64,000 nt of DNA. Origin: an uncultured bacterium. GTDB lineage: Bacteria > Electryoneota > AABM5-125-24 > Hatepunaeales > Hatepunaeaceae. The stretch spans positions 11,404-75,403 of the forward strand of contig CAYLYZ010000005.1 of assembly GCA_964387885.1 (NCBI GenBank), in the 5' to 3' direction. Below, one piece after another: positions 22,283-47,573 of this stretch (its first letter is position 1; each line of letters begins with the position of its first letter). The notes under the pieces were generated by a model, which did not search any database, had not been told where the DNA came from, and was given only the letters and a program-made list of their open reading frames with translations. Both the position numbers and the translations under genes were made by a program.

Positions 22283-23185
22283 CTAAAAATGCAAAATTCC
22301 CATCAGATACCTTACAACAATTATCCCCATACAAACCAAAAGTATGATCTTTATTGCGATTACAGGCATGAACTTTTGAACCACCGCTCCAAAGTAGATA
22401 CCTGCCATCCCTCCAATGCCAAATAATGTCCCCAGAGCCCAATCCGGTGATATTACGAGACCTGTTCCATCATAAAACAACTCAAGAGCAGCATAGACAA
22501 AAACTCCGAAAACCGAAACGGCAAATGTACTGAATAAGGCTACCCCACTAATTGCCCGGACGTGTTGTCGAAATACGGCAACATAAAACGGCGCAACCAA
22601 TGCACCGCCACCGATCCCATAAATCCCACTGACAATACCAACCAAAGAACAAACTGTTACAATTCCGACAATCGAGATTTGAAATTTCGTATCATATAAC
22701 GTATACGAGAAAACACCTTTTGTGAAAGAACAATCTGACCAGTGGAATTCCCCGTTATCATTTCCACTGTTGTTATCAGTTGCGGATTTCCGCAGCATAT
22801 CGGCTACTAACCTGACGCTCAGGTAAAGAAGAACCAAGGCGATAAACACCTTAAACAAGCGAGGATCAGGTAAATATTTTACTCTGATGATCGCCCCGAG
22901 AACGAATCCAGGCATCAAGCTGAAAGTCGTAATAGCAGTAAGGGGCCAGATAACTCTTCTGTCCCTTATATATTTATAAATCCCGCCCGGAATCGCTACA
23001 ATATTGTATAACAGATTCGTAGCACTCACCGCTGGTCCGACAAAACCGAGTATGCTGACCTGAAAAGGTAATAACAGGAAAGCTCCGGTGATTCCGGCAG
23101 TAGATGTCAGGCTCGAAATACAAAAAGCGACAACAATCGGTAACCACCAATACGTTTCAACACCACTTGCGGAAAATTCAATCAC
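22283..23185 (-). CDS. TauE/SafE family (DUF81) anion/sulfite exporter-like permease.
   Basis: 300 aa. Two 4-TM halves with Gly-rich motifs (GITGAFLLLPFQVSILGF ... GIGGGALVAPFYVAVF). Confidence 0.7.
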   Translation of the reverse strand: MIEFSASGVETYWWLPIVVAFCISSLTSTAGITGAFLLLPFQVSILGFVGPAVSATNLLYNIVAIPGGIYKYIRDRRVIWPLTAITTFSLMPGFVLGAIIRVKYLPDPRLFKVFIALVLLYLSVRLVADMLRKSATDNNSGNDNGEFHWSDCSFTKGVFSYTLYDTKFQISIVGIVTVCSLVGIVSGIYGIGGGALVAPFYVAVFRQHVRAISGVALFSTFAVSVFGVFVYAALELFYDGTGLVISPDWALGTLFGIGGMAGIYFGAVVQKFMPVIAIKIILLVCMGIIVVRYLMGILHF

Positions 23186-23201: not shown

Positions 23202-23720
23202 CTAAAGTTTTTGTGCTAACTGCATCAAGCCACCGGCGAAATAGATATCCTTCTGAACCGCGCCTAATGGTGAACCATCTGCAATTGTATTTCCGTTTTG
23301 ATCTGCAATTTTCCCGGTTTCAAGATCAATTTCAATCACATCACCAGTATGCAATTCAGAGCTCAGTGGTTTGTTACATTCTATCAGTGGCAATCCGGCG
23401 TTGATGGTATTCCGTTTGTAAATTGCACCGAAAGATTCACCTATTAAAGCAGAAACTCCGAGAGCGATAAATCCATCCACCGCCTGCTGACGAGAAGAAC
23501 CACATCCGAAATTGTGGCCCACTATCAAAATATCCCCTGTATTAACTACCCTTGGGAAATCCGAGTGTTCGGGCAAGTTGCCAAATATCCATTGTCCCAT
23601 TTCAGCCGGATCGGTTATATGCAAATGTCGATTATGAAAAATCATATCCGTATCCACATCCGGTTCGGGAACTATGTAAACATTGCCTTTCAGTTGTAAA
23701 GGTTTATCTTTTAATGCCAT
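23202..23720 (-). CDS. LeuD-like small subunit of the aconitase/3-isopropylmalate dehydratase family. No large subunit is nearby.
   Basis: 172 aa. GHNFGCGSSRQQA matches the LeuD/aconitase swivel-domain GDNFGCGSSREHA signature. Confidence 0.65.
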   Translation of the reverse strand: MALKDKPLQLKGNVYIVPEPDVDTDMIFHNRHLHITDPAEMGQWIFGNLPEHSDFPRVVNTGDILIVGHNFGCGSSRQQAVDGFIALGVSALIGESFGAIYKRNTINAGLPLIECNKPLSSELHTGDVIEIDLETGKIADQNGNTIADGSPLGAVQKDIYFAGGLMQLAQKL

Positions 23721-23884
23721 ATCTCTCTACATTCGAAGAATATCTGAGAATCGGATCTCAGGCTCAGTGGCAACGGGGAGGACGGACATTCCTGTCCGTC
23801 TTATCACCCTTTGAGGCGGACAGGAATCTCCGCTCTCCCCAAATGCCTGTGATGCCTGAATGACAGTACTCTAATGAAAAAGAA

Positions 23885-25372
23885 CTACCGGATTTCAGTC
23901 TCGAGAATCTCGATTTCAACGTTTCCAATAATCGGTGCTAACTCGGTTGACTCTGTTATTCCACCTGACGCAAACGCAATTCGAGCTGCATCTGCCTGTT
24001 TTTGTCCAAATGTCGGTTCGAACTCTTCCCAACGACCTTCAACCCATGCCGAAGGCCAGGCATGGTAGTAAAACCTGCCCTGTTGATATACGACTCCAAG
24101 TTGTATCCGGGCTGGTATACCTACCGATCTCGCCAATGCAGTAAACAGTACGCTGTGTTCGTTGCAATCTCCCTGTAATTGCTGCAGCACTGCCAGAGCA
24201 GAAGGTATACCTGTTGCCGGTTGCTTTTTTATTGCATGAAACACCCAATCTGTCAAACGATTGAGGCTGTCTATCCTGCTAACACCGCCCATCATGACAT
24301 TTCGGGCGAGTTGAATAATTGACTTCTCTCGAGATTCAATAAACGGTGCGTCTCTAACGTATTTTAAACGATTTCTCAGCTTACTGGTCGTATCCACAGC
24401 TGTCTGAAATACTTCAAATATCCCCTTGGACTCATCGACCACTCGTTGACGACCGCTGACACTGGCAATTTTCTTAACATCAATACCGAAGATCCTGTAC
24501 TTAGCATAATCGGTACGCCGAGGTGCCTTTATTACACCATCGGGTTTAATTGAATATATAGCAAGAAAATCAACCTTTGTATCCTCATCATCAACTTCAA
24601 GCGCGATCTCTTTTTCTTCCCGCCGCATTGTCATACCGAGAGGTGCGAACTCTGCAATTGAATTACCATTCGCATCGACATACACAGACGATTCAAGACC
24701 TGCCATTCGCGTTGTCAATTTACGCGCTTCATAGTCACCGCCCCATAACCTGTGCGTTTCAAGTGGGGCTCCAATCACAATCAAATCCTGCATCTCTAAC
24801 TTGACGGGATCAAATCCGGCAAGTTTAAGTGAATCATTTTCCCCCAGCCTGCCTGCATGCAGCAGCGGTTTTATTGCTTGACTCAGGTAAATAGGTTCTG
24901 GTGCAGGAAAAAACTTCTCACTTGTTTTTCCACCAGAATTGACCTCTATACGTAGAACCTTGTCCTCAACCCATCCGGAAAACACCGTAGCATAAGGTTC
25001 AGCCTCGAGACGACCACGAAAGGCGACAAGAGCAAGCGTGCTGTCAGTTTCTATTCGAGTACGCATTCGCATCTGCTGCTTAACGCCCATCATTGCACCC
25101 TGAATGCTTGAAAACTCCCGAATTTCATAGCCATGTGTATCGAGAGGTTCAAGTTCAGTGTTGACATACCCGATCTTCTGCCCGCTGAGATATACACCCA
25201 TCCAATAAGACTCCGGTTCCAGAAAAACTCCCCAGAGTAACTCATCAGGTGCATGCAATCCTCCGTGAGGTTCTCTGTAATAGCCTGTTATTAATATCGC
25301 TATCAAAGCGAACCATGCAAGATAAGTTCCCCACCAGGACAGACGTTTTGTCAGTCTTTCATAATCAAGCAT
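23885..25372 (-). CDS. Membrane-anchored transglutaminase-like cysteine protease-fold protein.
   Basis: 495 aa. N-terminal TM helix. C-terminal QGDCNEHSVLFTALARSVGIPARIQLGVVY...YHAWPSAWVE matches the transglutaminase-like Cys-His-Asp core. Confidence 0.7.
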   Translation of the reverse strand: MLDYERLTKRLSWWGTYLAWFALIAILITGYYREPHGGLHAPDELLWGVFLEPESYWMGVYLSGQKIGYVNTELEPLDTHGYEIREFSSIQGAMMGVKQQMRMRTRIETDSTLALVAFRGRLEAEPYATVFSGWVEDKVLRIEVNSGGKTSEKFFPAPEPIYLSQAIKPLLHAGRLGENDSLKLAGFDPVKLEMQDLIVIGAPLETHRLWGGDYEARKLTTRMAGLESSVYVDANGNSIAEFAPLGMTMRREEKEIALEVDDEDTKVDFLAIYSIKPDGVIKAPRRTDYAKYRIFGIDVKKIASVSGRQRVVDESKGIFEVFQTAVDTTSKLRNRLKYVRDAPFIESREKSIIQLARNVMMGGVSRIDSLNRLTDWVFHAIKKQPATGIPSALAVLQQLQGDCNEHSVLFTALARSVGIPARIQLGVVYQQGRFYYHAWPSAWVEGRWEEFEPTFGQKQADAARIAFASGGITESTELAPIIGNVEIEILETEIR

Positions 25373-25396
25373 TTTCAGTCGATCCTACTGAATATT

Positions 25397-25616
25397 TTGT
25401 CAACAAAGTCAATTAGTCAAAGATGTTGAATTTGACAAAACACAGGATATTTTGTCAAGTTTTGCATTTAATCAAAGAAGTTGAATTTGACAAAACACTG
25501 ATTATCTTGTCAACAATTGCAATTATACAAAGAAGTTGAATTTGACAAAACACTGATTATCTTGTCAACAATTGCAATTATACAAAGAAGTTGAATTTGA
25601 CAAAACACTGATATGT
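25397..25616. repeat. Four tandem 55-bp direct repeats. Each carries inverted heptamers TTGTCAA and TTGACAA, and on the minus strand a TATAAT box. The array lies 25-245 bp upstream of the transglutaminase-like gene.
   Basis: TTGTCAA at 25397, 25452, 25507 and 25562. TTGACAA at 25432, 25487, 25542 and 25597. Exact 55-bp period. Units 3 and 4 are identical over 50 nt. Confidence 0.9.
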
Positions 25617-25719
25617 CACAAAAGTGCATAAGATAAATAAAATGCTATATTTATTACCAAAATGCCACCTTCAAATCGTAATAATTGGTTTGAAGGTAAT
25701 TTGGATACTCATTGATCCT

Positions 25720-26706
25720 TCAAAATCTGAAATTGAAGGCTAATCCCGCTCCTTCATTATTGTAGAAAACCGGTGTAACTCTTACTCTTCTAATTTTCTT
25801 CATTTGCATAAGTTTTTCAGTGACAACATATCCGAAAACTGACCCCAGATAAGCATCAGATGGCCAGTGAGCTGTATCTGTAATCCTCTGAAGAGCCACT
25901 GACGTTGCAAATGTATATAAGGCGATAGTCGCATATTTGTTGTTTATATGATGCGACAGCACTGTTGCCATTTGAAAGACATTTGACGCATGACCTGATG
26001 GCAAAGAGGAACCCTCGAGAAAATCATATTGTCTCGGTCCAAATCCCTCATACGGACGCCGTCTCCCGATAAGCATAACAACAGCGTTTTTAGCATTTCC
26101 TGCTATTAGATAAGCTTCGAGTATATCAGCCGAGATCAACATTAGAGGCTCGTAGCCGATCAGATATCCAACAATTACGCCTCCGAAAATATACTTGTTT
26201 GTATGTGCCTGCATCCCGAGCGGTTCGAAGAACTCACCCATGTGACGAATGGGGACATAGAGAGGGTGATTCCTCGACCTTTGAAATCCGTCAAAAATCT
26301 CCTGGTCATAAGCATACAACAATCCTCCGACACCAAGTATACCACCAGTCCACAGAGCACTCTCTAAATCCATCCTCGCTGGAGAAGAATAAAAATACCA
26401 CATGTCAGAGAGGATGACCTTTCCCGATTTGTAAAGATCTCGACCAACGACCTTCAGGAATGCATCCTTGACTTCCTGATCGTCTGTATCATTGCTGTTA
26501 AATCTGTTTAAAGCAAACTTCTGCAAACTCTGATTATGCAAATCACATTGCAATTGCAGCCTGTAACGGACATTTTCTGAAATATTATGAACGTTATGTT
26601 CTGATGAAGAAGGTTGAAATGGTAAGGTACAAAATCCATATTTGCACTGAGTGAGCAGCAGGAGTGTGGAAAAAAAGAGTACTAAAGAAAGTCTTCGCAA
26701 TGTCAA
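25720..26706 (-). CDS. PAP2 superfamily (phosphatidic acid phosphatase / haloperoxidase-like) membrane phosphatase.
   Basis: 328 aa. KNAVVMLIGRRRPYE (K..RP), PSGHAS (PSGH) and LQRITDTAHWPSD (SR..H...D) are the three PAP2 motifs. Confidence 0.75.
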   Translation of the reverse strand: MTLRRLSLVLFFSTLLLLTQCKYGFCTLPFQPSSSEHNVHNISENVRYRLQLQCDLHNQSLQKFALNRFNSNDTDDQEVKDAFLKVVGRDLYKSGKVILSDMWYFYSSPARMDLESALWTGGILGVGGLLYAYDQEIFDGFQRSRNHPLYVPIRHMGEFFEPLGMQAHTNKYIFGGVIVGYLIGYEPLMLISADILEAYLIAGNAKNAVVMLIGRRRPYEGFGPRQYDFLEGSSLPSGHASNVFQMATVLSHHINNKYATIALYTFATSVALQRITDTAHWPSDAYLGSVFGYVVTEKLMQMKKIRRVRVTPVFYNNEGAGLAFNFRF

Positions 26707-27102: not shown

Positions 27103-29346
27103 ATGAACATACAATTCCGGGTAAAGTTGTCCACTCCTGAAAAAAATACAATTCACGCCATTCTCCTTCTAATGCTGATACATGTGATATCAGCAACAAC
27201 TCTAAATGCTCAACCCCGCGACGTGTGGAGACGTTTCTATGATAATGCAAATAACGCAGACTATCTATTTGATGTCTTTGCAACTGTTGATGGAGGTTAC
27301 GCAATGTGCGGTCATACTCCCGCTGGTCAGGGAATTGAAGGTTACTGGCTTGTAGGTGTCGATGGAAACGGTGAAGAACTTTGGCAGCGAACCTATGTAA
27401 ATGAAGGATTCCAGACCATTAATAACTGGTGCTTTTCACTTATTCAGGCAGATGATGGAGGTTTCCTGTTGGGAGGAAGAGTTCGAGAAGGTAATGTGAC
27501 ACATTTTTCTGTGCTCAGAACATTACCTGACGGTGAAGTATCATGGTGGCGCGAATATGGAGGAGATGATGCATCAGGTCAATGTAGTGCTATAATTGAA
27601 CTTAAAAGTGGTGAGTTTGTGGCTGTTGGTGGAATTAATGGTTCTCAGGCGTATGCAGTGCTGCTCGATACCAATGGTGATATTCTCTGGGAAAACACAT
27701 ATCAGGGTCGATGGTTCAGTTCATTACGCGAGGTTGCTGGAGGATTACTCATCGCAGGTGGTGATAATAATAGGGATGCCTGGTTGTTGAAAACGGATTT
27801 TGAAGGTGAAGTTGTTTGGTCCAGATCATTCGGTTCCGGACGACTTTACTCCCTCATATCATGTCAGGAGGGAGGCTTTGCCGCATGCGGATACCGATCT
27901 GGAAATGGTGGAGACTGGCTTCTGATACGGGTAGATGACGAAGGAAATGAACTCTGGTCAAATACATTTGATTTCGGTGGTAATGAATGGAGTCATTGTT
28001 TAACACAGATGTGGGACAATGGATTTATATTAGTTGGCGAAAATTCAAGATATAATGCATCAATGGTTCTAAGAACCGACAATTCCGGAAACGAAATGTG
28101 GCGCAGATTGGATGGCAATGAAGAAAACAGAATGCGAGACTATAGGTCAGTAGTTGTAGGCAATGATGGATTGGCTGTAGCAGTCGGAACGGGTTATTGC
28201 GAAGAGCATGGAAATAGACCGGATGGGGTTTTAACAAAGATAGCATTACTCTTTTCACCTCCGGAGATCGTTTTTTTCAGTCCTCAAGACCTCGAATTGA
28301 ATGTCCTGCAGGGAGATTCCATACAGTTTATTGTGCATGCTGAAGATTTACAGGAAGACACATTATCCTATTTCTGGATATTAGACGAAGACACCGTTGC
28401 AACCGACACAACTACGACAATTTTCTTCGAGGAACTTGATGATCATACTGTTGATTGTTTCGTCTCTGATGGTACATTTGCAGATTCGGTTCAATGGATA
28501 GTTCACGTTGAGGAATTCTTCATTCGCAGCTTTGAACCGGATAGTCTTGAATTTGCTATCCAAAGAGGCACGGAAGTCGATTTCAGTATTGATGTGGCAG
28601 CTTTGGAGGAGATCGAAGTCGGAAACACCTGGAACTTGACACATCGCGATCAAAGGCAGGAGGAATTGGGAAATGAGGAAGCTGTTTCCGTTACCTTCGA
28701 TCAATCGGGAGGTCATCAATTGCAGGCACTTGTTACATATGAGGAAGAGAGTGATGAGGTGACATGGACAATCAACGTCCGTTCGGCAATATGGTCATGG
28801 TGGCCATCTGAACTTGAGATATCGACATATGTTGATTCAACACTTGAGTTCGTTATAACTCCTTTCAACGAAGAGTCCGATTCGCTCGAATATATCTGGT
28901 TGCTCAATGAAGAACCGCTTGGAAGCGACAGTGCATCTGTACTCGTAACATTCCCGGAGACCAGGCAGTACGAAATCACATCCATTGTCCACGACGGCAT
29001 TGAAGCTGATACAATTCGTTGGACAGTCAATGTGGAGGAGTGGTCATTCACAACGGATTTAACGGATTTAACGGATTTGCCGTCCTCTCCTGTGTTGTAT
29101 TCGGCAAGCCCAAATCCGTTTAATGCTTCAATTAAGTTGTCGATGTATTTGCCTCGGAAAAATCACGTTTTACTCTCTGTGTTTGATGTCAATGGACGAG
29201 AGGTTTCGCGGTTGATGGATGGGAATGTCCGGGTTGGAAATCAGTCGGTTGTATGGAATGCAAGTGGTTTTCCGGCAGGTGTTTACGTTGTGCGGATGGA
29301 TGTTGGAAATGTGTCGGAAATGCGGAAGGTTGTTTTAGTTCGGTAA
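27103..29346 (+). CDS. T9SS cargo paralog 1. N-terminal beta-propeller-like repeat array, two to three Ig-like domains, a TDLTDLTDL linker and a T9SS CTD.
   Basis: 747 aa. Signal peptide. About 8 repeats of the pattern GG(hydrophobic)..G......DxWL.K.D..G...W. Conserved AIIELKSGEFV. C-terminus SPNPFNASIKLSM...AGVYVVRM. Confidence 0.85.
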   Translation: MNIQFRVKLSTPEKNTIHAILLLMLIHVISATTLNAQPRDVWRRFYDNANNADYLFDVFATVDGGYAMCGHTPAGQGIEGYWLVGVDGNGEELWQRTYVNEGFQTINNWCFSLIQADDGGFLLGGRVREGNVTHFSVLRTLPDGEVSWWREYGGDDASGQCSAIIELKSGEFVAVGGINGSQAYAVLLDTNGDILWENTYQGRWFSSLREVAGGLLIAGGDNNRDAWLLKTDFEGEVVWSRSFGSGRLYSLISCQEGGFAACGYRSGNGGDWLLIRVDDEGNELWSNTFDFGGNEWSHCLTQMWDNGFILVGENSRYNASMVLRTDNSGNEMWRRLDGNEENRMRDYRSVVVGNDGLAVAVGTGYCEEHGNRPDGVLTKIALLFSPPEIVFFSPQDLELNVLQGDSIQFIVHAEDLQEDTLSYFWILDEDTVATDTTTTIFFEELDDHTVDCFVSDGTFADSVQWIVHVEEFFIRSFEPDSLEFAIQRGTEVDFSIDVAALEEIEVGNTWNLTHRDQRQEELGNEEAVSVTFDQSGGHQLQALVTYEEESDEVTWTINVRSAIWSWWPSELEISTYVDSTLEFVITPFNEESDSLEYIWLLNEEPLGSDSASVLVTFPETRQYEITSIVHDGIEADTIRWTVNVEEWSFTTDLTDLTDLPSSPVLYSASPNPFNASIKLSMYLPRKNHVLLSVFDVNGREVSRLMDGNVRVGNQSVVWNASGFPAGVYVVRMDVGNVSEMRKVVLVR

Positions 29347-29358
29347 AGTATTTTTTAC

Positions 29359-29387
29359 TTGACAGTACTGAAACAATTGCTTATATT
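29359..29387 (+). promoter_or_regulatory. Sigma70-like promoter TTGACA-N17-TATATT inside the paralog array.
   Basis: TTGACA at 29359-29364, 17-nt spacer, TATATT at 29382-29387. Same consensus occurs at 46601 and on the minus strand at 45221-45249. Confidence 0.5.
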
Positions 29388-29514
29388 TCACTTACATAAT
29401 TGAAATTATATTTACGTTTAAGATAAACCTGCTTCTTTATTTCAAAGACTTGCGAATGGATAACACAATGATATTACTTGATTTACCCCCCCCATTTTCA
29501 GAGGAGGTCTTAAA

Positions 29515-29727
29515 ATGCACACCACAAGTGACTTAGAGCCTTCAAAGGCAACCCCGACCACTCTGCTTAAAAACCAGATCCATCAAAGAACTCTGATTAA
29601 TTCAATCACCAGAAAGATCAAACTAAATCGAACATTCCGCAGGATAGATAGGGATAAATCTCTGTTCGAAATTCAATTCACCATAAAACGGAGGGAGGAT
29701 GGGCACTTGTTATGTGCCCCAACTTGA
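29515..29727 (+). CDS. Hypothetical small basic protein (70 aa) with a strong Shine-Dalgarno site.
   Basis: AGAGGAGG lies 7-8 nt upstream of the ATG. K/R-rich product. No homology recognised. Confidence 0.3.
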   Translation: MHTTSDLEPSKATPTTLLKNQIHQRTLINSITRKIKLNRTFRRIDRDKSLFEIQFTIKRREDGHLLCAPT

Positions 29728-29893
29728 AAGCTGGATGACCAGATATTTTGACAGTTAAGTAAAAAAAGTCGGACGTGCCCTAACCTTTGCAAAGAAAAGC
29801 ACGCCCGACGGGGGTTCGGTTGGACTTCTAAGAAGTCCTTCCTACACCTCCAAGGTAAGAAAGAAAAAACAAAAAAACTACTTTGGAGTTACA

Positions 29894-30253
29894 ATGAAAA
29901 GCAAGAAAATGTTGGTTTTGGTTCTGACGATTTGTCTGTTTGTTGGAGGCGTTAGTCTGGGTATTCATTTGTTGCATAAGGATGCTCATGCAGTAGCTAC
30001 CTACATAATTGATTGTTCATTTCAAGGAGGTGGGGGAGCAGAAGGTGTCGGTGTGAGAATAACCATTGACGGTGAAGGATCTTTCCAGGGTTACACTGAT
30101 GAGAATGGGCTATATACAAAGGCTATAGGCGAACCAGCAGAATGGACTTCAGAAATGATCGATACAGGATATACCCTGCGACAAGGTAGCGATCCAAATC
30201 CTGCGGAATGGTCACAACCTGGAACAGCTCTTTATATTGTTCTAGCAAACTAA
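29894..30253 (+). CDS. Small secreted protein (119 aa), possibly with a carboxypeptidase-regulatory-like beta-sandwich.
   Basis: Signal peptide MKSKKMLVLVLTICLFVGGVSLG. GVRITIDGEGSFQGYTDENGLYT motif. GGAG Shine-Dalgarno. Followed by a strong terminator. Confidence 0.55.
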   Translation: MKSKKMLVLVLTICLFVGGVSLGIHLLHKDAHAVATYIIDCSFQGGGGAEGVGVRITIDGEGSFQGYTDENGLYTKAIGEPAEWTSEMIDTGYTLRQGSDPNPAEWSQPGTALYIVLAN

Positions 30254-30277
30254 TGTTAACCTTTTAATTCTAACGAA

Positions 30278-30310
30278 CCGAACTGCAGCGAAAAGCTGCA
30301 GTTCGGTATT
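30278..30310 (+). terminator. Rho-independent terminator: CCGAACTGCAGC-gaaaa-GCTGCAGTTCGG followed by TATT.
   Basis: Perfect 12-bp stem with 5-nt loop, directly after the 29894..30253 stop. Confidence 0.7.
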
Positions 30311-30345
30311 AAATAACCCCAAGAATATTGATTTAGGAGAATTAA

Positions 30346-32580
30346 ATGAAAACTCTCAAATTCAGTTTAATTTTAATTTTTATTATTAATACTACAGCCT
30401 ATGTGCAACCCCAGAACGATTGGGTCAGAACTTATGATCTGGGGAGGGAAGATGCAATAAAGGACATTTACCGAATGCAAAATGGTGATTTGGCAACTTG
30501 CGGAGTCACGAGGGATCATTGGAACCACAATAATCTGAGCAGTCAGATTTGGTTGATGCGACTTGAAGATAATGGTAATATTATATGGTCAAATACTTAT
30601 GGAGATGAAGATATTTGTGAATCATTCTGGTCTTTGATTGAAGCCGATAATGGTGATATTTTATCAGTTGGTTTTTCATATTCAGATGATGATTATAGAA
30701 CAGCAGCTATCAGAACGGATTCTGAAGGTGAGGAGATCTGGAGGCGAACATATAATGGGATAGAATTTAACGCTATTATTGAATTAAAAAGTGGTGATTT
30801 TGTTATGTGTGGATATGATTCTGAAAATCGAAATCCTGATGGCTTATTAATTTGCATTGATGGAGATGGGGAAATACTCTGGAGAAGAATGTATGATTTT
30901 GGAGGATCTGAGTTCTTTTATTCAATGAGGGAAACGGATGGCGAAGTGGTGGTTACCGGAGATATTTCATTTGATGATTGGTCATCCGTTTGCGTGCTAA
31001 AGGTTGATGCTGAACAAGGTGATATAATCTGGTCGAGAGTGCACAGACTGGAGTCACCTGCACTCGGTCTCTCTATGGTCTCAGTGCGAGACGGAGGTTT
31101 TGCTATTACCGGTTATTCTGCTATTGGCCGTGATTCCGACTTTTTACTTCTAACGGTTGACAATCAGGGTTTTGAGGAGTGGAATCGGTCCTATGATATC
31201 GAAGGTCAAAACACTCCGGACATGTCGTATTGCATCGCACGTTTGAGTGATCAGGGATATGCTCTTGCCGGGAGTAGCAATCAGTGGACAAATGCTATTG
31301 TGCTTAAAGTTGACGCTGGAGGAGATTTAGAATGGTCTCGCAATGCCAGCGATATTATGGAAGGTCAAACAACCACCCTTTTCTCATCTGTGGTAGATTG
31401 TATTGATCGTTCAGTTCTAAGCGCAGGCAGAATAAGAGTAGAGGATGGAGATTACGATGGATTACTTGTGAAATTTGTACCGGAACGATCTGCCCCGTTA
31501 ATTATTGAATATCATCCCGATGATACTCTATTGAATGTTCTTCAGGGCGATACAATACAGTTTGATGTTTATGCAATAGATGCCCAGCGTGACTCAATGG
31601 AGTTTATCTGGACAATGGGTGAGGACACCGTATCGGTTGATACTTTTGCAGTTGTAGTGTTTGATGAGTTGGGTGAATTTTCTGTTAACTGCAATGTTTC
31701 CGATACCACCGGATTCACTGAAATAGAATGGGATGTAAATGTCCAGGAGTTTGTAATCAGGGAATTTGCTCCGGATAATCTCGACTTCGCAATCCGGAGA
31801 GGAACATCAATCGGTTTCTCCCTTGATGTCGATGCCCTTGAAGATTTGGACCTTGAGTATCTTTGGACAATAGTTCATAGAAACCAGCAACGGGAAGAAA
31901 TCGGAGAAGATAATCGCGTTTCCGTTCAATTTGATCAAGCAGGTGAGCACCAGGTTCAGGCATTAATATCAGCTCCGGAAACTTCTGAGGAGATTAACTG
32001 GACTATCAATGTCCGCTCTGCAATCTGGTCATGGTGGCCATCTGATCTTGAAATATTGGCTTATGTTGACTCGACTTATGAATTTGTTATTACGCCTTTC
32101 AATGAGAATTCGGATTCACTCGAATACTCCTGGCTGTTTAATGATGAACAATTAGAAAGCGATAGTTCTTTAACAATAATCACATTTCCAGAGGTTGGTC
32201 AGAATGAAATAACATCCATTGTCCACGACGGCATTGAAGCTGATACAATTCGTTGGACAGTCAATGTGGAGGAGTGGTCATTCACAACGGATTTAACGGA
32301 TTTAACGGATTTGCCGTCCTCTCCTGTGTTGTATTCGGCAAGCCCAAATCCGTTTAATGCTTCAATTAAGTTGTCGATGTATTTGCCTCGGAAAAATCAC
32401 GTTTTACTCTCTGTGTTTGATGTCAATGGGCGGGAGGTTTCGCGGTTAGTGGATGGAACTGTTCTGGCAGGGAATCAGTCGGTTATATGGAATGCAAGTG
32501 GTTTTCCGGCAGGGGTTTATGTTGTGCGGATGAAGGTTGGGGGAGTGTCAGAAATACGGAAGGTGGTTTTAGTTCGGTAA
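30346..32580 (+). CDS. T9SS cargo paralog 2. Same architecture as 27103..29346.
   Basis: 744 aa. AGGAGA Shine-Dalgarno. Its last ~245 nt before the divergent tail are identical to paralog 1 (32212-32457 vs 28975-29220). Confidence 0.85.
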   Translation: MKTLKFSLILIFIINTTAYVQPQNDWVRTYDLGREDAIKDIYRMQNGDLATCGVTRDHWNHNNLSSQIWLMRLEDNGNIIWSNTYGDEDICESFWSLIEADNGDILSVGFSYSDDDYRTAAIRTDSEGEEIWRRTYNGIEFNAIIELKSGDFVMCGYDSENRNPDGLLICIDGDGEILWRRMYDFGGSEFFYSMRETDGEVVVTGDISFDDWSSVCVLKVDAEQGDIIWSRVHRLESPALGLSMVSVRDGGFAITGYSAIGRDSDFLLLTVDNQGFEEWNRSYDIEGQNTPDMSYCIARLSDQGYALAGSSNQWTNAIVLKVDAGGDLEWSRNASDIMEGQTTTLFSSVVDCIDRSVLSAGRIRVEDGDYDGLLVKFVPERSAPLIIEYHPDDTLLNVLQGDTIQFDVYAIDAQRDSMEFIWTMGEDTVSVDTFAVVVFDELGEFSVNCNVSDTTGFTEIEWDVNVQEFVIREFAPDNLDFAIRRGTSIGFSLDVDALEDLDLEYLWTIVHRNQQREEIGEDNRVSVQFDQAGEHQVQALISAPETSEEINWTINVRSAIWSWWPSDLEILAYVDSTYEFVITPFNENSDSLEYSWLFNDEQLESDSSLTIITFPEVGQNEITSIVHDGIEADTIRWTVNVEEWSFTTDLTDLTDLPSSPVLYSASPNPFNASIKLSMYLPRKNHVLLSVFDVNGREVSRLVDGTVLAGNQSVIWNASGFPAGVYVVRMKVGGVSEIRKVVLVR

Positions 32581-32654: not shown

Positions 32655-34901
32655 ATGAGACTATTTACTCTGTTGATTCTTAGCTCGTTTCTTGTTTCAT
32701 CTGTCGCTTATACCCAACCCAATGTGGATTGGATTCATACTTATGATACAGGTCGAAAGGAAAGCTTTTGTGACATTTTTACCGTTCCGAATGATGGGTA
32801 CATAATGTGTGGTAGAGCGTTTAATCAGGAACCCACGGATAACAGTGTAGATATGCTAATCGTAAGAATTGACGATGATGGAAATCAACAATGGCATACC
32901 AACATAGGCTTCGAAAATTCAGTTGATGTATTATTTAGTGTAATCAACACTGACCTTGGATCATTTATGTGTGGTGGAAAAGCAGAACCATTTCCTGTAG
33001 AAGATAATGTCAGTCAAACTATTGCAGTTCATTTGGATGCTGACGGGGAGCAAATCTGGCTGAATCGTTTTGCTCAGGGTGAAATTCATGCCGTTATAGA
33101 ATTGAAAAGTGGTGAATTTATTGGCGCAGGATGGTCAAATAGACGAGGATATCTTGTATGTTTTGATATTGATGGTAATGTGATATGGGAAAACCTCTAC
33201 GGAAATAGAAATTCTCAATATTTTTATACAATGAGAGAGACACAGGGAGGTATAGTTGTCGGTGGTAGGTCAAATAGAGCGGCATGGGTAGTGAAAGTAA
33301 GTTTCAATGGAGAACTGATTTGGTCCAGAGAACATCAATTGGAACAATTCAATTGGTTGATTAATATGACCTCATCGAGAGAGGGTGGGTTCGCTTTTTC
33401 AGGTCATTCCTTGTTAAGTGAAGGAAGAGGACTCCATTTATTATTGATGAAAGTTGATGATAACGGGGATTTAGAATGGCACAGAATACATCAATTCGAC
33501 CAGGACCATGTATATGAAACTGGTCCTGGATTAACTCAGATGAATGAAAATGGCTTTACTATAGTTGGACGATACGCTGGGGGAAATTGGAATCAACCAT
33601 CTCACCCTTATGCCGTACGGGTGAATTCTCAGGGAGCAGAACGTTGGAGAGTGATTTATGATATGGAGGATTTCGAGTCGCTAAATAATATTAATGGTGA
33701 GTTTTGGCATGTTACGGCAGCAAATGATGGTTCACTCATTGCTGCTGGACAAGTGCATCATCTGGATGAATCTGAAAATGGATTGGTGATGAAACTTGAA
33801 CCGGACATTTTAGAACCAATGTTTCTCCATTGGGAACCGGAAGATACCTTGCTCGAAGTACTTGAGGGTGACACTATCAACTTCCTTGTGCGTGCAGTTG
33901 ATCAACAGGGTGATGAAATGAGTTATTTGTGGATCATGGGTGAGGATACTCTTTCGACTGACTCAACCACCACCGTAATATTCGATGAAATGGGCGAGTT
34001 TGAGGTACAATGTCAGGTTTCAGATGGTGAGTTCACATCTGCAATTACTTGGTATATTACAGTCGATGATTTTGTCATCCGAGATTATTCTCCGGATGAA
34101 ACCGAACTGGCTGTCAGACGTGGTTTAGAGTTAGAGTTCAGTCTCGTAGCTGAAGCTCTTGCTGAACCAGAAATAACTTACGAATGGCTGTTATTCGACA
34201 GAAACAACCAGCGTCAGGAACTCGGAAATGAGCAGGGAATAACCACACATTTTGAAATGACCGGTGTTCACCGGCTGGAGGGATGGGCTTTGCACGGAGA
34301 AGATGCGAAGTCAGTTGTATGGACAATTGAAGCGCATTCCATCGTCTGGTGGTGGTGGCCTCATGAATTTGAACTGTCTGTCCGGCAGGACACAACGATG
34401 GTTTTCGAGGTTTTTCCTTTCAATGAAGAATCCGATTCTCTTGAATATGCATGGTATCTCAACAACGAAGCTTTAGACTGTGACACTTCTCTTATTGAAA
34501 TCTCCTTCCCAGAGATTGGTACCTGCGAGATCACAGCCCATGCCCAGGAAGGAATCGAAGCTGACACCATAAGATGGACTGTGGAGGTTATTGAACGGTC
34601 ATTCACAACGGATGAAACAGATTTAACGGATTTACCGACTTCACCGGTGCTATATCCGGCAACTCCTAATCCGTTTAATTCTTCGGTTAAGTTGTCGATG
34701 TGTTTGCCTCATGCGGATCGTGTTTTGCTCGCGGTGTTCGATGTTAATGGACGAGAGGTTTCGCGATTGGTGGATTGGAATGTCGGGGCGGGAAATCAAT
34801 CGTTTGTATGGAATGCAAGTGGTTTTCCGGCAGGTGTTTATGTGGTGAGGATGGATGTTGGGGATGTGTCGGAAATTCGGAAGGTTGTTTTAGTTCGATA
34901 A
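32655..34901 (+). CDS. T9SS cargo paralog 3, more diverged. Same architecture.
   Basis: 748 aa. HAVIELKSGEFIGAGW. Ig-like LLEVLEGDTINFLVRAVDQQGDEMSYLWIMGEDTL. C-terminus TPNPFNSSVKLSM...AGVYVVRM. Confidence 0.85.
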   Translation: MRLFTLLILSSFLVSSVAYTQPNVDWIHTYDTGRKESFCDIFTVPNDGYIMCGRAFNQEPTDNSVDMLIVRIDDDGNQQWHTNIGFENSVDVLFSVINTDLGSFMCGGKAEPFPVEDNVSQTIAVHLDADGEQIWLNRFAQGEIHAVIELKSGEFIGAGWSNRRGYLVCFDIDGNVIWENLYGNRNSQYFYTMRETQGGIVVGGRSNRAAWVVKVSFNGELIWSREHQLEQFNWLINMTSSREGGFAFSGHSLLSEGRGLHLLLMKVDDNGDLEWHRIHQFDQDHVYETGPGLTQMNENGFTIVGRYAGGNWNQPSHPYAVRVNSQGAERWRVIYDMEDFESLNNINGEFWHVTAANDGSLIAAGQVHHLDESENGLVMKLEPDILEPMFLHWEPEDTLLEVLEGDTINFLVRAVDQQGDEMSYLWIMGEDTLSTDSTTTVIFDEMGEFEVQCQVSDGEFTSAITWYITVDDFVIRDYSPDETELAVRRGLELEFSLVAEALAEPEITYEWLLFDRNNQRQELGNEQGITTHFEMTGVHRLEGWALHGEDAKSVVWTIEAHSIVWWWWPHEFELSVRQDTTMVFEVFPFNEESDSLEYAWYLNNEALDCDTSLIEISFPEIGTCEITAHAQEGIEADTIRWTVEVIERSFTTDETDLTDLPTSPVLYPATPNPFNSSVKLSMCLPHADRVLLAVFDVNGREVSRLVDWNVGAGNQSFVWNASGFPAGVYVVRMDVGDVSEIRKVVLVR

Positions 34902-46360: not shown

Positions 46361-46600
46361 TCTATGTCCTAAAGGTTTTCGGATTCTATGATTTTGTTTC
46401 GGGAAACAGAGCCTATCAGGTCGAACTGCGCTCCTGCCCCGAGCAACCAATTAATATAATACCATAACTATAATAAACTGTAATCTTTCGAGCATTTCTA
46501 ATCAATTGCATTACATTTCAGGTGAAATTAAACATGAGATAAACCACAATAAATAGAAATTAGTTTGTGCAAAAAAAATCAACATATTTTCAGAATACAC

Positions 46601-46629
46601 TTGACAACTGAACTAATGTTCAGTATATT
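46601..46629 (+). promoter_or_regulatory. Sigma70-like promoter TTGACA-N17-TATATT. Its spacer is the palindrome CTGAAC-taat-GTTCAG, which carries a Cheo-box-like GAAC-N4-GTTC.
   Basis: TTGACA at 46601-06, TATATT at 46624-29, palindrome at 46608-46623. Lies 48 nt upstream of the VOC gene ATG, which has an AGGAG Shine-Dalgarno. Confidence 0.55.
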
Positions 46630-46676
46630 TCTCACGAAACATGTTTTCATTAGATTAAATACAAGGAGTCAAAAAA

Positions 46677-47030
46677 ATGAGTAATCCAGTCGTTCATTTC
46701 GAAATTGCCACAAAGGACAGCGCAAAAGCATGTGAATTTTATGGCAAATTATTCAACTGGAATATCCGTGTTATGGATACTATGAACTATTCTCTCGTTG
46801 AAGAAGGTGAAGGCGGCATACCTGGTGGTATCTTTCAGGGAGAAGAGGATCAATGCCCACCATATGTCACAATTTATGTTAAGGTGGATGACCTTCAGAA
46901 AAGTCTCGACCATGCAATCGAGTTAGGAGGCACACAGGTTGTCCCTCCAACCCACATTTCAGAAGCAGGTTCTTTCGCGATGTTCAGTGATCCGGATGGA
47001 AACGTCATCGGCTTATGGAAGGCAGCGTAG
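46677..47030 (+). CDS. VOC (glyoxalase / bleomycin-resistance / dioxygenase) superfamily protein.
   Basis: 117 aa. VHFEIATKD...FYGKLFNW...GGIPGG...SDPDGNVIGLW is the typical VOC fold signature. Confidence 0.8.
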   Translation: MSNPVVHFEIATKDSAKACEFYGKLFNWNIRVMDTMNYSLVEEGEGGIPGGIFQGEEDQCPPYVTIYVKVDDLQKSLDHAIELGGTQVVPPTHISEAGSFAMFSDPDGNVIGLWKAA

Positions 47031-47217
47031 AATCTGATTATTTGATGTTTCCCTGCACTACAGGGGAATACGGATAGAATATCATATCGGACCAAACTCT
47101 TTCACATTCATGGTGTGTAACTCAATCCGGATTTTCAAATCACTGGAAGGTCCGGGTTGTATTTAACAACATAAAGTAAGCAAATACCTGATATCAGGTA
47201 CAATTTGGAACAGGAAA

Positions 47218-47472
47218 TTGCAGTACGAATCTCTCACTGAACCAATTGAGGTCATTGTACATTTTGCCTCAAACGGAATCAGACCCATCCGTTTTCTGTG
47301 GCGAGGAGCAGCTCATCGAGTCGAAACTGTTCGAGGAAAATGGACAACTCTTGAAGGACAACGGCAATGCCGCCATTTCGCTGTAACCGCAGATGGTGTT
47401 GGTAACTGCGAAATAGTATTTGATCTCGATTCAATGATTTGGAAAATCGAATCCGTTGCAGTCATGAACTAA
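47218..47472 (+). CDS. Hypothetical 84-aa ORF with a TTG start. Doubtful.
   Basis: No Shine-Dalgarno and no homology recognised. Its only support is its position upstream of dinB, flanked by palindromes. Confidence 0.2.
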   Translation: MQYESLTEPIEVIVHFASNGIRPIRFLWRGAAHRVETVRGKWTTLEGQRQCRHFAVTADGVGNCEIVFDLDSMIWKIESVAVMN

Positions 47473-47573
47473 ATATTCACATCAAATTACATTGTAATTT
47501 CACAAGCAAGGTAACATGTTTTAAGTTGGAAACAATCGGATGAAAGATAATCTAAATATAGCCTTGGGCAATA

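Follow-up and report, generated by a model that had tools for sequence, protein, structure and literature searches.

The stretch of DNA analysed here (64 kb, hereafter the window) carries a gene for a transglutaminase-like (TGase) protein that lies downstream of, and in the same orientation as, a gene for a PAP2-family phosphatase, and that is followed by genes for a LeuD/aconitase-C-like small subunit and a TauE-family protein (Table 1). The closest named relatives of the TGase protein are encoded in Calditrichaeota/Calditrichota MAGs, T9SS-sorted proteins are numerous in the window, and tRNA genes were not found in it. The 347-bp spacer between the PAP2 and TGase genes holds a tandem array, for which Tandem Repeats Finder (TRF) gives the limits 25387-25612, 4.1 copies, 87% matches, 0% indels and a score of 326; the same program detected no other long-period array in the window. 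Its period of 55, together with unit starts spaced 55, 55 and 55 nt apart in a repeat search of the window, bears out the exact 55-bp period given in a preliminary description of this DNA. The units are arranged head-to-tail and the array ends 16 nt before the ATG of the TGase gene (at 25372). Read along the minus strand, as the flanking genes are, the order is U4, U3, U2, U1, then GTAGGATCGACTGAAA, then the ATG.

The two gene-distal units are closer to each other than had been described: the identity reported over 50 nt extends to all 55, with a perfect offset-55 run of 85 nt across units 3 and 4, in agreement with the recent slippage proposed at the time. The gene-proximal unit, by contrast, does not deserve to be called degenerate, as it matches the others at 44-47 of 55 positions, versus 44-45 of 55 for unit 2, and keeps both heptamers. 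On the plus strand TTGTCAA begins at 25397, 25452, 25507 and 25562 and TTGACAA at 25432, 25487, 25542 and 25597; the spacing of 28 nt inside the units and 13 nt over the three junctions is that of the preliminary description. The window has three occurrences of the composite TTGACAA-N13-TTGTCAA where 0.64 would be expected, each of them within the array. Since TTGWCAA is its own reverse complement save for the central base, however, the "inverted heptamers" are in part a property of the word itself. The inverted repeat proper is longer, at 12 bp (GTGTTTTGTCAA / TTGACAAAATAT). Its 5' arm is the 14-mer TGTTTTGTCAAATT, which is invariant among the units and includes an extended -10-like motif, TGTCAAATT. 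Each unit combines this 14-mer, the 12-bp inverted repeat and σ70-like elements.

Table 1. Features of the PAP2/TGase spacer and of the adjoining genes (window coordinates).
Feature	Position	Strand	Basis
Whole tandem array	25387..25612	-	TRF, repeat search, covariance-model matches
Unit 4, gene-distal, GTGTTTTGTCAAATTCAACTTCTTTGTATAATTGCAATTGTTGACAAGATAATCA; TATAAT-bearing type, number differs among assemblies	25554..25608	-	
Unit 3, 55/55 identical to unit 4	25499..25553	-	
Unit 2, 45/55 identical to units 3 and 4; GATTAA in place of TATAAT	25444..25498	-	
Unit 1, gene-proximal; 44-47/55 identical to others; corresponds in position to the orthologues' single copy	25389..25443	-	
Invariant 14-mer TGTTTTGTCAAATT	25429..25442, 25484-25497, 25539-25552, 25594-25607	-	Alignment of units
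TATAAT, 15 nt downstream of TTGTCA	25522..25527 (unit 3), 25577-25582 (unit 4)	-	Best σ70-like match in spacer
Conserved leader GTAGGATCGACTGAAA, AGGA Shine-Dalgarno-like motif 10 nt before ATG	25373..25388	-	
Flank directly 5' of array, CACTTTTGTGACATATCA; like unit tail minus 3-4 nt	25609..25626	-	Read from sequences; inference
Conserved block 5' of array, GGTGGCATTTTGG...AGCATTTTATTTATCTTATGCAC; candidate native promoter/regulatory region	25624..25669	-	Alignment of three lineages
TGase gene, downstream; 495-aa protein, C-terminal transglutaminase-like core (Transglut_core)	23885..25372	-	Pfam, NCBIfam
PAP2-family phosphatase gene, upstream, co-oriented with TGase gene	25720..26706	-	Pfam
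LeuD/aconitase-C-like small-subunit gene, after TGase gene	23202-23720		
TauE-family gene, after LeuD-like gene	22283-23185		

The surroundings of the array show several further features. The order TGase gene, LeuD-like small-subunit gene (window 23202-25372) is kept in Calditrichota orthologues that are only 56-61% identical (L072 2501-4852; L075 2501-4459), despite differing upstream neighbours; the two form a conserved gene pair. The spacer between them measures 164 nt in the window (23721-23884), versus 21 nt and 41 nt in two sister lineages, and contains a GC-rich inverted repeat with an 11-bp stem (23788-23827, minus strand; ATTCCTGTCCG...CGGACAGGAAT), which may be an inserted hairpin element or a terminator. 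Three paralogous genes lie in tandem on the plus strand (27103-29346, 30346-32580 and 32655-34901), with products of about 745 aa that combine PKD domains and C-terminal T9SS sorting domains; each gene has the 9-bp sequence AACGGATTT three times near its 3' end (29052-29078, 32286-32312 and 34607-34634), and between the first two lies a stretch of about 1 kb that is poor in ORFs (29347-30345). The intergenic region at 46451-47573, about 1.1 kb between divergent genes, is without any ORF of at least 120 aa. The sign of the GC skew changes near 26-27 kb, but it does so several times along the window, in step with gene orientation, and a replication origin at this place was rejected.

Origin, confinement and copy number of the repeat unit

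Two sister lineages of uncultured, marine-type Calditrichota, one with a TGase 89% identical to that of the window (L009-L013, spacer 183 bp) and one with a TGase 84% identical (L014-L019), carry exactly one unit, of 55-56 bp, 16 nt before the ATG, and share the downstream gene order of the window. At orthologous TGase loci of 56-61% identity there is no trace of the unit, and the upstream neighbours differ. The 14-mer is identical in all four window units and in both single-copy orthologues; among these six copies TTG at unit positions 24-26 is likewise invariant and TG.CAAAAT is conserved, while the middle of the unit diverges. The leader that separates the last unit from the start codon is conserved between lineages as GT.GGAT.GACTGAA., and the block 5' of the array can be aligned in all three lineages, including the one that lacks the PAP2 gene. 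The occurrence of one copy at the same place in the sister lineages identifies the array as the product of a tandem amplification, specific to this lineage, of an upstream element that is single-copy and conserved at genus level, a conclusion that we hold with high confidence. Of the three lineages compared at this locus, only one has the array. The earlier suggestion that the array amplifies the gene's own upstream module is thereby upheld.

The likely seed of the amplification can also be discerned. TCAGT is present at both unit boundaries, and sequence resembling the unit tail lies directly 5' of the unit in all three lineages (25609-25626 of the window, minus strand; about 305-323 in L014), suggesting that the ancestral locus already held about 1.3 copies. 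A short direct repeat 55 nt apart is a plausible starting point for duplication. In L014-L019 (positions 1-396) the PAP2 gene itself is gone, with only its last ~12 codons recognisable (DDGADLAFKVRF versus NEGAGLAFNFRF*). At least six independently assembled contigs of this 84%-identity lineage end 371-396 nt 5' of the TGase gene, an end point that hints at the boundary of a repeat or insertion sequence.

The unit is confined to this locus in the sequence that we could search. No further copy exists in the window; an exact search with its 23-nt core (23-mer) gave no matches in genome or metagenome collections; and a looser pattern of 14-mer, gap and 3' arm gave 42 stretches (16 from genomes and 26 from metagenomes), only three of which (L030, L051 and L052) are related, all representing the orthologous locus, the rest coming from unrelated taxa. 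The Calditrichaeota genome co234_bin30 has no unit besides that at the orthologous locus, and a covariance model of the unit, run over 150 kb, found the array and the orthologous single copies only. Outside the array the heptamer is no more frequent in intergenic DNA (0.24 per kb) than in coding sequence (0.31 per kb), and the heptamer palindrome, expected in the preliminary description to recur upstream of other genes, did not do so in the window, the related loci or the genome of one relative. Neither the locus nor the unit resembles plasmid or phage sequence, and a mobile-element origin was rejected on that ground. No Rfam 15 family reached its gathering score in the window, and a permissive search of the spacer returned sub-threshold matches to eukaryotic families only, which we attribute to chance; a known structured RNA was discarded accordingly.

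Because the unit is absent from the rest of the sequence searched, iterons, CRISPR arrays, dispersed elements of the REP/MITE type and a visible regulon can be set aside. The iteron-like array once entertained for these repeats is contradicted by the unit length (55 bp, not the ~17-22 bp or so of plasmid and origin iterons, taken as ~20 bp in that comparison), by PAP2 and TGase neighbours in place of a replication gene or origin, and by chromosomal synteny with relatives. That this is not a CRISPR array, as had been recognised, follows from the homology of the 29-nt variable halves to one another, two of them being identical. Dispersed repeats of the MIRU, REP, BOX or MITE type occupy many loci and this unit occupies one. 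For an operator belonging to the regulon of a dimeric factor, a search of about 64 kb of the genome and of the genome of one relative gave no second site, and the array has no regulator gene next to it. The GTTGAAT motif fits the attC-like consensus GTTRRRY, but there are no cassettes and the match was rejected as chance.

Comparison of copy number across related assemblies, as advised in the preliminary description, revealed three, four and at least five units. An identical TGase protein is encoded on 12 metagenome contigs. Among the contigs inspected, L001 and L002 have four units like the window, L003 (JGI 3300009320) has three, with flanks 100% identical to the window, and L006 (ERZ23498983), which differs by one SNP and starts inside the array, has at least five. 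Only the identical, TATAAT-bearing unit varies in number, being present once, twice or at least three times. These differences rest on short-read assemblies, and the three-unit contig could be a collapse of two identical units; at least five units, however, cannot arise by collapse and are not an expected assembly artefact. Logan contigs break inside the array at the branch points expected of a k=31 graph, and for this reason their ends carry no information on transcript ends, a use of them that we rejected.

Promoter-like elements and a proposed mechanism

The best σ70-like match in the spacer is TTGTCA-15-TATAAT in U3 and U4 (score 11.5). In addition, each of the three junctions creates TTGACA-17-TCAAAT (score 10.6) and TTGACA-18-CAAATT (score 9.3). 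In random 353-nt windows the best score is 7.4 at the median, 9.7 at the 90th percentile and 13.8 at most, and AT-rich sequence yields many σ70-like matches by chance; the matches of unit and junction are therefore suggestive, not decisive. The preliminary description had placed a minus-strand TATAAT in every unit. This holds for two of the four (plus-strand ATTATA at 25522 and 25577) and fails for the other two, which have GATTAA and GACTAA. Since neither units 1 and 2 nor the two single-copy orthologues have TATAAT, this motif appears to be a recent acquisition of the expanding unit type and cannot be the ancestral promoter; its 15-nt spacer is moreover suboptimal. The junction -10 candidates are weak as well, TCAAAT being without the A at -11 and CAAATT having an 18-nt spacer. 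AGGA precedes the ATG by 10 nt, so that a transcript initiated within U1 would have only a very short leader.

Other promoter classes were considered. A Bacteroidota-type promoter (-33 TTTG / -7 TAnnTTTG) was suspected from the T9SS sorting domains, but the -7 motif TAnnTTTG is absent from all 28 upstream regions of the window and the organism belongs to the Calditrichota. A σ54 promoter in the conserved GGTGGCA...AGCA block was dismissed by eye, the GG-to-GC spacing of about 20 nt being non-canonical. Sites resembling σ70 promoters, such as TTGACA-17-TATATT, are present in the upstream regions, and Shine-Dalgarno-like GGAG/AGGA motifs precede many window genes, pointing to promoters and ribosome-binding sites of the conventional kind in this Calditrichota MAG.

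We give about an even chance to the reading of the array as a promoter-proximal minisatellite, that is, a promoter tandem repeat of variable copy number. The ancestor would have had a single 55-bp cis-regulatory module directly before the ribosome-binding site of the TGase gene, flanked by a short direct repeat (TCAGT plus the unit-tail-like stretch). Slipped-strand mispairing or unequal recombination between these flanking repeats would then have duplicated the module in this lineage. The two older copies would have diverged since, while the youngest type gained a perfect TATAAT and may still be expanding and contracting. Each extra unit would bring σ70-like promoter elements with it, both the TTGTCA-N15-TATAAT inside the expanding type and, at each junction, a perfect TTGACA set 17-18 nt upstream of the next unit's invariant TGTCAAATT. 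Most likely, the number of units would tune how strongly the gene string TGase / LeuD-like / TauE is transcribed. This component, promoter dosage, we consider possible but somewhat short of an even bet. The conserved block at 25624-25669 counts against it: if that block holds the real promoter, the units are transcribed leader and not promoters.

Alternative explanations

Such a start 5' of the array, in the conserved block or by read-through from the PAP2 gene, is the premise of a rather unlikely alternative in which the units form an array of RNA hairpins in the leader or intercistronic mRNA. Each unit would fold in the message with a stem closed by GUGUUUUGUCAA / UUGACAAAAUAU, and amplification would alter mRNA stability, processing or translation, and not initiation. 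All four units and both orthologous copies do fold on the sense strand with a closing stem of 11-13 bp (-9 to -11.6 kcal/mol), whereas antisense folds are weaker (-7.0, -7.6 and -5.5 kcal/mol) and that of L014 is without the stem. The 12-bp helix pairs in 96.6% of cells, versus 36-57% in slid controls; pairing is kept on the sense RNA alone at one invariant G.U pair and at three separate changes from U-A to U.G; the arms are conserved and the loop is divergent; a scan found neither a canonical terminator after the PAP2 gene nor a PAP2 intrinsic terminator within the array; and the whole leader is more stable than its shuffles (z = -3.0). Single units, however, reach z-scores of just -1.4 to -2.6, the stem is AT-rich with a 31-nt loop, and no Rfam family matches. 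Double-sided compensatory changes are absent, and the three one-sided U-A to U.G transitions, set against two non-pairing cells (one of them an L009 substitution at the loop-side end of the stem), are not statistically distinguishable from chance. The invariance of the 5' arm over 14 nt points to sequence-specific recognition and not to pairing alone.

Recognition by a protein is central to another alternative, an operator array, to which we give little credence. Here TTTTGTCAA / TTGACAAAA would be half-sites for a dimeric regulator, the junctions would form 9-N9-9 palindromes about two helical turns apart, and more units would titrate or cooperatively load the regulator. Consistent with this, the half-sites are conserved in the orthologues, one of them invariantly, the junction palindrome TTGACAAAA-N9-TTTTGTCAA is perfect at the junction of units 1 and 2, and a weaker counterpart made of flank and 14-mer exists in the single-copy lineages. 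The 3' half-site nevertheless drifts in the orthologues (CTGACAA, TTGGCAA), and the 55-bp period corresponds to 5.2 helical turns, which would leave successive units out of phase. The confinement described above weighs against an operator on the same points, namely a second site (absent from the 64-kb window, the related loci and the co234_bin30 genome), intergenic enrichment of the heptamer and an adjacent regulator gene, and it excludes the iteron form. Finally, the array could be a functionally neutral minisatellite, a slippage-prone duplication that leaves expression unchanged and whose copy-number variation is partly assembly error. The small number of lineages, the breaking of Logan contigs exactly where a k=31 graph must break, and the perfect flanks of the three-unit contig relative to four-unit contigs, which a collapsed repeat would also produce, are all compatible with neutrality. 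Yet the amplified segment is the best-conserved part of the upstream region and not random spacer, the divergence of units 1 and 2 implies an array of some age, the contig with at least five units is not explicable by collapse, and 55-220 bp inserted between a conserved block and a ribosome-binding site is unlikely to be silent. We consider neutrality unlikely.

Relation to known repeats and possible role

The promoter-tandem-repeat reading draws on a described type of bacterial minisatellite. In M. tuberculosis, promoter tandem repeats of 58 bp upstream of lpdA (VNTR3690), 54-56 bp upstream of cysG (QUB15) and 57 bp upstream of dop sit 12-29 bp before these genes, often change in copy number and are mis-resolved by short reads, and the unit holds mapped transcription starts of leaderless genes (PMC12817950, which also gives the VNTR background for mycobacteria). 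The array described here resembles them in its unit length (55 bp versus 54-58 bp), in its gap to the start codon (16 bp versus 12-29 bp), in its head-to-tail, intergenic arrangement that stops no more than a few tens of bp short of a start codon, and in a unit taken from the upstream or promoter region of the gene itself. Copy number likewise appears to differ here among very close genomes, as judged from short-read assemblies, which tend to mis-resolve such repeats and in which the three-unit state could be a collapse. Unlike the mycobacterial cases, the TGase gene has a Shine-Dalgarno-bearing leader after the array, its promoters are predicted and not mapped, the bacterium belongs to another phylum (Calditrichota, uncultured), the sequences are not similar, and the 12-bp inverted repeat is found only in the unit described here. 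These promoter tandem repeats are the closest described counterpart of the array.

Other repeat classes are more distant. The MIRU-VNTR loci of mycobacteria are intergenic tandem repeats of about 50-100 bp between co-oriented genes and are polymorphic in copy number, all of which recalls the present array, but MIRUs are dispersed over many loci per genome, whereas this unit has one locus and a local origin. Short-unit contingency loci in promoters or leaders of pathogens, such as those before Neisseria nadA (a TAAA tract) and the Haemophilus hmw genes (7-bp repeats), share with it a slippage-driven repeat number upstream of a gene, which in those loci alters expression; their units of 1-7 bp act via spacing or regulator binding, in contrast to the whole 55-bp module here. 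Plasmid iterons are also directly repeated modules in an intergenic region, where they bind protein, but they are helix-phased and lie beside a rep gene and origin.

As it stands, the array is a well-documented, ordinary minisatellite, non-random and of clear origin. A more far-reaching proposal is that amplification of an end-inverted module creates a new, stronger promoter at each junction (TTGACA 17-18 nt 5' of TGTCAAATT), such that the number of units would work as a dial, heritable and reversible, for a transglutaminase-like envelope protein of an uncultured, free-living member of the Calditrichota. We advance this tentatively and regard it as doubtful. If true, an environmental bacterium would show the behaviour of contingency loci, which are known mainly from pathogens, and the variation would be directly visible in environmental metagenomes. 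The locus also singles out the module with the invariant 14-mer as a genuine Calditrichota cis-element worth testing. Should unit number change expression, the locus would be a natural case of tuning by promoter copy number that does not come from a pathogen but from a phylum for which hardly any molecular genetics exists, and one that could be tracked in existing metagenome time or depth series.
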